Positions 29,227-29,964 of a stretch of 64,000 nt of DNA are shown here, piece after piece. The position numbers and the translations under genes are program-made. The stretch is taken from assembly GCA_018175075.1 (NCBI GenBank), contig GCA_018175075.1_4100.1. One strand, given 5' to 3'. A model generated the notes under the pieces. The model did no database searches and was not told the DNA's origin. It worked only from the letters and a program-made list of their open reading frames with translations. Every line of letters starts with the position of its first letter. The first letter of the stretch is position 1. Origin of the DNA: a phage.

Positions 29227-29964
29227 TTAGACTGAATTGTTAGGATAATATCTCCCACGTCCCCATATTATTCGCACAGCACCACCACCAGCAGCCGTAT
29301 AAGAAAAATTATCCCATATACTACCACCACCACCATACATCTTACCAGCACCACCACTACCAGCACCACCATTATATGAACCATCGTATCTACCGCCAAT
29401 ACCATTAGCACCTTGAACAATGATACCAGTACCACCACCCGTACCAATGAACGAGGTATTATAGAATGCACCACCACCACCGCCGCCGCCAGCACCATTT
29501 TCACCAGTGATTGCATCTCCGTTACCACCTTTACCAGTGTAGCCACCAGCACCACCACCAATGACTGCACCACCACTTACACCAGCGTTGCCCCCATTAC
29601 CACCACCATCATTAATAGCGTTAGCAGCTTTCCCACCTAGTCCACCAACCCTATATTCACCAGTGAAGCTAACACATAGTTTTTCAGTTCCACGATATAA
29701 ACCGTTTTCAACTGCTGTAGTAGTGTTGGGATGTGTAAGAGAAACACTTAAGTACTCACCACTAGTAACCGGAATATTATTACGCCACGATAAGCCGCCA
29801 CCAGCACCACGTTGACCACCCGGCGAAATAACACATACTGATATTTCGGTAACGCCAGCAGGAACTGTAAATTGTGTTGTTCCTATTGTCGTGATTAATT
29901 GTTCACCATGTGGCTTATATTCAATTTTATTCCCGTACTTAACCATTCTTCCAAAAGGTAACAT
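29227..29964 (-). CDS. glycine-rich tail-fibre-like protein G7 with the array N-terminus
   Basis: 245 aa, MLPFGRMVKYGN then poly-Gly tracts and ..AVRIIWGRGRYYP. Confidence 0.7.
   Translation of the reverse strand: MLPFGRMVKYGNKIEYKPHGEQLITTIGTTQFTVPAGVTEISVCVISPGGQRGAGGGLSWRNNIPVTSGEYLSVSLTHPNTTTAVENGLYRGTEKLCVSFTGEYRVGGLGGKAANAINDGGGNGGNAGVSGGAVIGGGAGGYTGKGGNGDAITGENGAGGGGGGGAFYNTSFIGTGGGTGIIVQGANGIGGRYDGSYNGGAGSGGAGKMYGGGGSIWDNFSYTAAGGGAVRIIWGRGRYYPNNSV

Follow-up and report, generated by a model that had tools for sequence, protein, structure and literature searches.

How does a gene come to share its first codons, and little else, with every intact neighbour in an array, and what does so short a shared peptide do? 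This question was raised by a 64,000-nucleotide stretch of phage DNA (contig GCA_018175075.1_4100.1; below, the window), in which a block of RCC1-like propeller genes on the minus strand includes one member, here called G7, with a glycine-rich body of another kind. Our analysis suggested that G7 is a small virion accessory protein, in which a docking peptide (residues 1-12, the handle) and a linker (residues 13-19) would carry a TNF-like and glycine-rich tip of a receptor-recognising type (residues 20-245), and that such bodies would be swapped by way of a cassette to which the handle belongs. Taken as a whole, we regard this explanation as reasonably probable.

The body of G7

G7 occupies positions 29227..29964 on the minus strand and, according to the open reading frame (ORF) list and its translation, encodes 245 amino acids (aa) between an ATG start and a TAA stop. 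The same interval read on the plus strand gave a translation riddled with stops, and a plus-strand gene was ruled out on that ground. The handle, MLPFGRMVKYGN (codons 1-12, 29929..29964, minus strand, as are all features of G7), is of the form that we call type A and is common to 11 of 11 intact array members. It is followed by the linker KIEYKPH (codons 13-19, 29908..29928) and by the body (codons 20-245, 29230..29907), a TNF-like beta-sandwich with a glycine-rich, Gly_rich_2-like domain that ends in a conserved AVRIIWGxGRxYP strand. The bodies of homologues with another handle, or with none, begin at a G-(E/Q) that corresponds to residues 20-21 of G7. An earlier, sequence-only reading of this locus had described the body as made of poly-glycine tracts and as shorter than its neighbours, at 245 rather than about 400 aa. 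The strings that it quoted (GGGNGGNAGVSGG, GAGGGGGGGAF and AVRIIWGRGRYYP, along with the handle) were all present in the translation, which also includes the peptide IEYKPHGEQLITTIGTTQFTVPAGVTEISVCVISPGGQR; glycine made up 28.6% of the protein and 38.6% of residues 101-245, and the ten neighbours, all RCC1-like, were 369-401 aa long with one exception, a truncated member of 269 aa.

The body of G7 is unrelated to the propellers. The neighbours carried Pfam RCC1 repeats above the cut-off, with expect values (E) down to 8e-32 for the RCC1-like domain and down to 1e-103 for PHROG 4219, and were mutually 25-46% identical in an all-against-all comparison. G7 had no RCC1 match in Pfam at E <= 10, and its PHROG match was to family 4474 (function unknown; E 2.5e-69) and not to 4219. 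When G7 was compared with the array by BLASTP, the alignments were confined to its N-terminus (residues 1-12 to 1-36; E 4e-5 to 0.07) whether or not SEG masking was applied, and every hit between its body and the propeller bodies, masked or unmasked, had E > 2. The full-length alignment to the propellers after masking, named by the earlier reading as the outcome that would speak against its proposal, was thus not found.

Pfam and NCBIfam scans of G7 gave no hit, even at permissive E-values, and G7 did not match PF21722 (Gly_rich_2) at E <= 10. However, of 194 homologues in a large protein collection, many matched PF21722 across the whole profile and above the gathering score. Most homologues were stand-alone proteins of ~240-280 aa, and some were C-terminal domains behind long N-terminal extensions, one of which had a weak Ig_3 hit. 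Three that G7 retrieved at E 1e-16 and weaker matched PF21722 positions 1-225/226 with 39.2 (P0037), 32.7 (P0038) and 26.9 bits (P0105), against a cut-off of 24.3. Because G7 had no hit of its own while its homologues exceeded the cut-off, its membership in the family would rest on transitive homology. In the family consensus, conserved motifs (LSWRNNIPVTPGE, INDGGGNGG, GGGAGGYxGNGGNG, GGGGGGG and AVRIIWGxGRSYP) alternate with variable stretches, much as polyglycine motifs and hypervariable segments alternate in gp38 of the T2/S16 type, a small tip adhesin attached to the fibre by its N-terminal part (PMC3157838; for S16, as recounted in papers that cite the original work).

The AlphaFold2 model of G7, from a 58-sequence alignment, was compact, with a predicted local distance difference test (pLDDT) score of 93.9 and a predicted template modelling (pTM) score of 0.89, and had the fold of the Gly_rich_2 type, a beta-sandwich with a lattice of extended glycine-rich segments. 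Foldseek searches with this model returned top-ranked targets at a marginal E of 1.7e-3, and a profile of the 58-sequence family alignment found only chance-level matches (a galectin, a glycine receptor) among PDB sequences. Matches in BFVD were mostly annotated 'glycine-rich domain-containing protein', and some were annotated as baseplate component, tail fibre or minor tail protein. The proposal of a glycine-rich, tail-fibre-like body therefore held at the level of the fold, with one refinement: the body is a globular tip, and not a shaft or a disordered tail.

The G7 body adds a member to a fold and family already known (PF21722-like), to which Pam3 gp24 and Bxb1 gp33 belong, and in solved phage structures this fold lies at the distal end, the one that recognises receptors, of fibres and tail appendages. 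[quoted passage not shown] The two proteins differ in other respects, being 17% identical in sequence with no profile-level match. A ~50-residue N-terminal alpha-helical bundle trimerises gp24 and docks it to the baseplate, whereas G7 has only 19 non-helical residues, modelled at low confidence, ahead of its body; gp24 needs the adjacent Tfa-like chaperone gp25, whereas both neighbours of G7 are RCC1-like and terminators flank the gene. For Bxb1, a multi-gene array of alternative bodies has to our knowledge not been described. Its tail-wing brush gp33 and tail spike gp29 (PDB 9D93) belong to another morphotype and host and do not share the handle motif.

One handle on many bodies

The handle was conserved as a peptide wherever it was found in the window and in the Pectobacterium phage CBB (Mimasvirus): its motif is M-L-P-F-x-R-h-h-x-Y-[GA]-N, which in CBB takes the form MLPF-x-R/P/I-h-h-x-Y-G/A-N, and M1, L2, P3, F4, Y10, [GA]11 and N12 are invariant in 21 of 21 sequences. 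Where the handle ends and the exchangeable part begins was seen by comparison with the Escherichia phage ph0011, which is collinear with the window at 96.4% identity from 32468 down to 29926, across two RCC1-like genes, the intergenic cassette and codons 1-13 of G7, and stops there. The gene in the G7 slot of ph0011 (190-1539 of its record) starts MLPFGRMMNYGNK / MLPFGRMMNYGNKVQIPTVKK... and so bears the handle, but its product of 449 aa is longer than the usual RCC1-like members and has a body unrelated to that of G7.

Eleven CBB genes carry the handle (CBB_144, 247, 536, 537, 548, 549, 550, 551, 552, 553 and 554). The G7-family protein among them, CBB_144, starts MLPFSPLIVYGN and is encoded by a solo gene between nrdD and nrdG; CBB_247 is likewise a solo handle gene outside the arrays. 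The bodies behind the CBB handles are of the Laminin_G_3 (CBB_548, CBB_551), Kelch (CBB_550, CBB_552, CBB_554) and glycine-rich (CBB_144) types, with at least two further types beyond these. A tblastn search with the 23-residue handle returned 62 records, all from Rak2-like jumbo phages except for one weak, chance-level hit, and the features under the matches were annotated as kelch-like, Ig-domain or virion structural proteins. The handle is kept across Asteriusvirus, Mimasvirus, Eneladusvirus and other jumbo-phage lineages.

The converse arrangement, in which the same bodies stand behind other N-termini, was also found. Of 58 stand-alone G7-body homologues, four had the MLPF type and at least 31 had M-x-E-h-[LMI] (MLELL, MIELL, MLEML and the like), the commonest type, while the rest differed. 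This second handle, in the fuller form M-[LFNI]-E-[MILTN]-[LMI]-x-h-[GSA], heads RCC1-like, glycine-rich, Laminin_G_3 and CBB_536-like proteins in the Vequintavirinae and in PCH45. It was seen on Vequintavirinae RCC1-like proteins (MLEMLNLG in three genes of A7_1, MFEMLLGG in EspYZU08), on glycine-rich proteins (MLEILTIG in EspYZU08, MFEMMLATS in PVP-SE1 gp018, MLEMLTVG in P0035), on a Laminin_G_3 protein (MNEMLMLG) and on CBB_536-like proteins of Cronobacter phage CR8 (MLEIMTAA in gp268, annotated 'virion structural protein', and MNEMMIVS in gp267). Such bodies carry MLENLLTG and MLETILSR in the Serratia phage PCH45, an unrelated jumbo phage. The same bodies behind short, lineage-specific N-termini would be expected if the peptide fits a lineage-specific docking site. 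The two CR8 genes (2453-4536) sit inside a cluster of 17 transfer RNA genes, an unusual place for virion structural genes.

The principle of a conserved N-terminus for attachment with swappable C-terminal modules is well known from tailspikes and tail fibres, in which a lineage-conserved N-terminus attaches the protein and the C-terminal binding domains are horizontally exchanged. The anchors known there belong to trimeric spikes and are folded domains with some 100 residues or more, whereas the handle is only 12 residues long, heads at least six unrelated small globular folds and occurs in 10-15 copies per genome. In the literature searched, no description was found of this 12-residue handle on at least six body types, of its link to six CBB-specific proteins (discussed below) or of the Vequintavirinae parallel, and the jumbo-phage comparative review, the UE-S1 paper and a search of the Asteriusvirus and electron cryomicroscopy (cryo-EM) literature gave no account of this shared N-terminus. 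The earlier proposal that the N-terminal handle is a portable module fused to unrelated C-terminal domains was thus supported by the ph0011 breakpoint, the variety of CBB bodies, the conservation of the handle in 21 of 21 genes and the other N-termini found on G7-type bodies.

Virion association and the putative docking site

The G7-family protein of CBB is a virion protein: mass spectrometry (MS) of CBB virions identified CBB_144 by 5 peptides at 34% coverage (PMC5259590), and nine of the 11 CBB handle proteins were MS-positive. Six CBB structural proteins are absent from GAP32 (CBB_144, 247, 536, 537, 551 and 552) and were named by the same authors as tail-whisker candidates (PMC5259590); all six bear the handle. 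RCC1-like proteins were likewise found in virions of phAPEC6 (gp003/005/006/007/009/010) and of W70, a member of the Vequintavirinae (W70_237-239, 141-233 spectra). A 'PE-PGRS family protein' is among the virion identifications made by liquid chromatography with tandem mass spectrometry (LC-MS/MS) for the pEa_SNUABM_12/47/50 phages, and the protein so named in pEa_SNUABM_47 is a glycine-rich fold match to G7. The cryo-EM paper on phi92 does not mention glycine-rich or RCC1-like components. In phAPEC6, the locus 7325-8056 encodes a full 245-aa homologue that is 98.4% identical to G7, of which the record annotates only the 100-aa gp004 (7716-8018); this is likely why the homologue is missing from the published phAPEC6 virion proteome.

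The CBB virion peptide report also contains peptides that reach into the handle, LFEYANVIIPPNYK (CBB_536 residues 7-20) and YANVIVEYATK (CBB_548 residues 10-20), as well as IAPYQILYEMK (CBB_144 residues 14-24). The presence of handle-derived peptides in mature CBB virions indicated that the handle is retained and is not cleaved off. A reading of the handle as an N-degron recognised by ClpS was dropped: CBB encodes a ClpS-like protein, but its virions did not yield it, and no processing is expected of N-termini that begin Met-Leu.

In the AlphaFold2 model of G7, confidence was low for residues ~1-15 (mean pLDDT 54 for residues 1-10). A model of the RCC1 member A11, meant to show whether the handle closes the propeller as a strand and a weak test given its shallow 11-sequence alignment, reached a pLDDT of 61.7, with residues 1-30 below 50, and the handle was not seen packing into the propeller. 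From the low confidence of the handle in G7, and its unstructured state in the weaker A11 model, we infer docking by binding to a common virion component. The handle would remain on the mature protein and act as its plug into a shared site of the particle, for which the likeliest candidates are the hair- or whisker-like decorations that phAPEC6, 121Q and CBB bear on tail sheath and capsid. The virion would then show a mixture of binding modules (RCC1 and Kelch propellers, lectin-like Laminin-G domains and glycine-rich tips), which would bind host surface structures and could widen or strengthen adsorption. The connection between handle proteins and hairs is correlative.

Several observations weigh against this explanation. 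The product of G7 itself was not detected, and phAPEC6 gp004 is absent from the MS table. Mass spectrometry does not separate head interior from surface. The helical N-terminal domain by which Pam3 gp24 trimerises and binds the baseplate is missing from G7, which also has no fibre-chaperone gene next to it. A few genes with the handle also occur in GAP32, for which hairs are not reported, and the literature favours a role in DNA condensation for the RCC1-like members.

The handle could alternatively be a capsid-targeting signal (CTS) like that of T4, with G7 and the RCC1-like proteins lying inside the head, in an inner body or in the organisation of DNA, and perhaps being ejected into the host. 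The internal proteins of T4 are the classical case of diverse bodies with a common N-terminal peptide of ~10 residues that sets incorporation into the particle, and they are encoded in a hyperplastic, cassette-like locus; a short N-terminal peptide on otherwise unrelated proteins is a property that the handle shares. Moreover, phAPEC6 has an inner body, for which its authors propose RCC1-like proteins as candidates, the W70 authors repeat the idea of encapsidation, and the MS data show that handle and RCC1-like proteins are associated with virions, but not where in them they lie. However, the T4 CTS, whose cargo lies inside the head, is removed at a Glu-terminated site by the prohead protease, whereas the tryptic peptides from CBB virions include ones that span residues 7-12 and 10-12 of the handle. 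The type A handle also has no Glu and so has no Glu-terminated cleavage motif. [quoted passage not shown] The isoelectric points of the array members range from 4.9 to 9.3 and are not uniformly basic, as those of DNA-condensing proteins would be, and the handle is present on each of the six structural proteins specific to CBB that were proposed to account for an external feature. We therefore consider a head-internal role unlikely.

The expression cassette and the array

G7 keeps not only the N-terminus of its RCC1-like neighbours but also, as the sequence-only reading had noted, their upstream module of hairpin, promoter-like box and Shine-Dalgarno (SD) sequence. The hairpins and boxes were located by a regular-expression scan, a terminator scan and an alignment of upstream sequences. 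The SD sequence AGGAGG lies 5 nt upstream of the ATG (29970..29975, minus strand; pattern AGGAGGGAATTATGTTACCTTTT at 29953-29975, compared with the upstream sequences of all members). It is preceded by the box TAAATATATTATAATG, with a -10-like TATAAT, which is common to 8 array genes (29981..29996, minus strand). The 5' edge of the cassette is the intrinsic terminator hairpin of the upstream gene, with 12 pairs (AAAAGCCAGTACAGAGTACTGGCTTTT plus a T-run; 30008..30034, minus strand). A second intrinsic terminator hairpin lies directly downstream of G7 (29199..29221, minus strand), and the terminators on both sides indicated that G7 is a monocistronic unit. It would be transcribed as such from its box and translated from its SD sequence, as in the RCC1-like neighbours. 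A scan of the site called no sigma-70 -35/-10 pair, the TATAAT standing without a -35, and statements on promoter class and timing are accordingly conjectural.

Most array genes repeat this order: a terminator hairpin GCCAGTAC-loop-GTACTGGC with a T-run, then the TAAATATNNTATAATG box, AGGAGG and ATGTTACCTTTT. The hairpin family of 30008-30034 recurs between most genes with loops of varying length, and a pattern with a fixed loop matched one site only. The consensus of the box is TAAATAT(A/T)(G/T)TATAATG, also written TAAATATNNTATAAT. All 11 copies of ATGTTACCTTTT in the window stand at array gene starts, and for a longer SD-plus-start pattern 0.00 chance occurrences were expected. The CCAGTAC...GTACTGG hairpin has one more copy at 21247-21266, inside the block of plus-strand genes upstream of the array. 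Because the promoter box of several members contains an in-frame ATG (TATAATGAATAAAGGAGG; 29964-29990, minus strand, and equivalents), several ORFs are mechanically lengthened by MNKGGN-.

From the SD sequence as far as codon 12, G7 and the other members are almost identical in nucleotide sequence; beyond codon 12-13, where the collinearity with ph0011 also ends, this identity drops sharply. A comparable arrangement is the PeSL (promoter early stem-loop), a composite of terminator hairpin and promoter that is repeated between variable-region genes and serves as an exchange point for unrelated sequences (PMC4122927). The array resembles it in having hairpins and TATAAT boxes between most genes and a replacement breakpoint within the cassette, as seen between the window and ph0011; it differs in lacking a -35, in belonging to Rak2-like jumbo phages and in that the cassette reaches into the coding region with a functional peptide. 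Bodies would be gained or exchanged by homologous recombination in the conserved ~110-nt cassette of terminator, promoter, SD sequence and handle and, as this cassette extends into the coding region, each incoming body would acquire the handle. A metagenomic G7 variant, P0002 (206 aa), starts MNKGGNKIEYKPH and is also without part of the glycine-rich region. Its start is exactly the one that would result from a deletion between two GGGAAT copies, one in the SD region and one in codons 11-12, and it may be a natural handle-less allele or an assembly artefact.

Such a cassette raises the possibility that the N-terminus has no function as a peptide and was inherited by G7 simply as a part of DNA kept for expression and recombination. 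The first four codons of the handle, ATG TTA CCT TTT, are invariant in nucleotide sequence in 11 of 11 window genes, synonymous sites included, the cassette is a recombination breakpoint, and PeSL cassettes mediate gene shuffling in T4-like phages (PMC2839356, PMC4122927). However, codons 6, 10 and 11 vary synonymously even within the window, and in CBB codons 2, 3, 4, 10, 11 and 12 differ synonymously while the amino acids stay constant (TTA/CTT, CCA/CCT/CCG, TTT/TTC, TAT/TAC and AAT/AAC are in use), and the DNA upstream of the CBB handle genes is not conserved from gene to gene. The motif is also kept across several genera and in the solo genes CBB_144 and CBB_247. Synonymous variation together with unconserved upstream DNA in CBB indicated selection on the peptide itself and not only on a DNA cassette, and we give the cassette-only account little credence. 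That G7 might be a decayed member or a low-complexity artefact, in which repeated glycine codons had overwritten a propeller gene and no folded product is made, as its glycine content, its lack of Pfam and NCBIfam hits and its short length could suggest, is refuted by the confident compact model, the 194 homologues with conserved non-glycine motifs (LSWRNNIPVTPGE, INDGGGNGG, AVRIIWG), the 85-99.6% identity kept in 18 phage genomes, the CBB homologue covered to 34% in virions and the lack of any alignment of the body to the propellers.

The window groups with the Asteriusvirus jumbo coliphages (121Q, phAPEC6, G17, Sharanji and others) by megablast and tblastn. G7 is already in the databases as a hypothetical protein: its orthologue, 121Q gp243, is 99.6% identical, carries that annotation and lies in the same array, among genes annotated 'putative DNA condensation (RCC1-like)'. 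At a coverage of ≥80%, G7 was found in 18 phage records, all Asteriusvirus-like, whereas the handle matched 41 Escherichia and Salmonella records, which indicated that G7 is an accessory member of the array.

As delimited from ORFs, translations, Pfam and PHROG matches and identities, the array (21924..36116, minus strand) comprises, besides G7, ten intact RCC1-like genes that bear the handle and the remnant of a split one. It appears as a block of eleven large minus-strand genes, flanked by small plus-strand ORFs, with which the guanine-cytosine skew flips; the last plus-strand ORF (21281-21943) overlaps the last ORF of the array (21924-22820, minus strand) by 20 nt. That last ORF, a handle-less RCC1-like reading frame of 298 aa that starts MWYAGNG, is the 3' part of the split member. 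Upstream of it and in another frame, 22820-23120 (minus strand) encodes MLPFGRIITSSKKNIQP...EDLWVRV*, a degenerate handle that has lost its YGN, followed by a stop, and the split member as a whole (21924-23120) corresponds to the split 121Q gp235/gp234. The 269-aa member (27163-27972, minus strand) is a frameshifted gene, of which ~130 further propeller residues run on in another frame to the SD sequence of the next gene and end ...TEYQLPQI*, overlapping TAAGGAGG (region 26790-27972, minus strand). The gene that follows it (25673-26782) is without its own hairpin and promoter box. The truncated product seems to be a real protein: its likely phAPEC6 counterpart, gp007 (30.06 kDa), has a gene of the same length (810 nt) and was found in virions.

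Beyond G7, the 12-residue peptide could be a general plug for unrelated binding domains on the hairs and whiskers of Rak2-like jumbo phages, with the Vequintavirinae and some others using the M-x-E-h-L peptide as an analogous plug; we put this forward as a tentative generalisation. The findings bear on two questions in jumbo-phage biology, namely the make-up and cargo of hairs and whiskers and the true role of the multi-copy 'RCC1-like DNA condensation' proteins. They extend the PeSL idea of cassette-mediated gene shuffling, as the cassette here reaches the coding region, and the handle turns six unrelated 'hypothetical structural proteins' of CBB into one family set by its attachment peptide. 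If the peptide suffices for incorporation, it would be a very small tag for decorating large virions, in host-range engineering or display, and could be used for loading foreign cargo onto virions. If the generalisation is true, dozens of phage RCC1-like proteins would be wrongly annotated with 'DNA condensation', and the unassigned hairs of CBB, phAPEC6 and 121Q would be a modular display surface.

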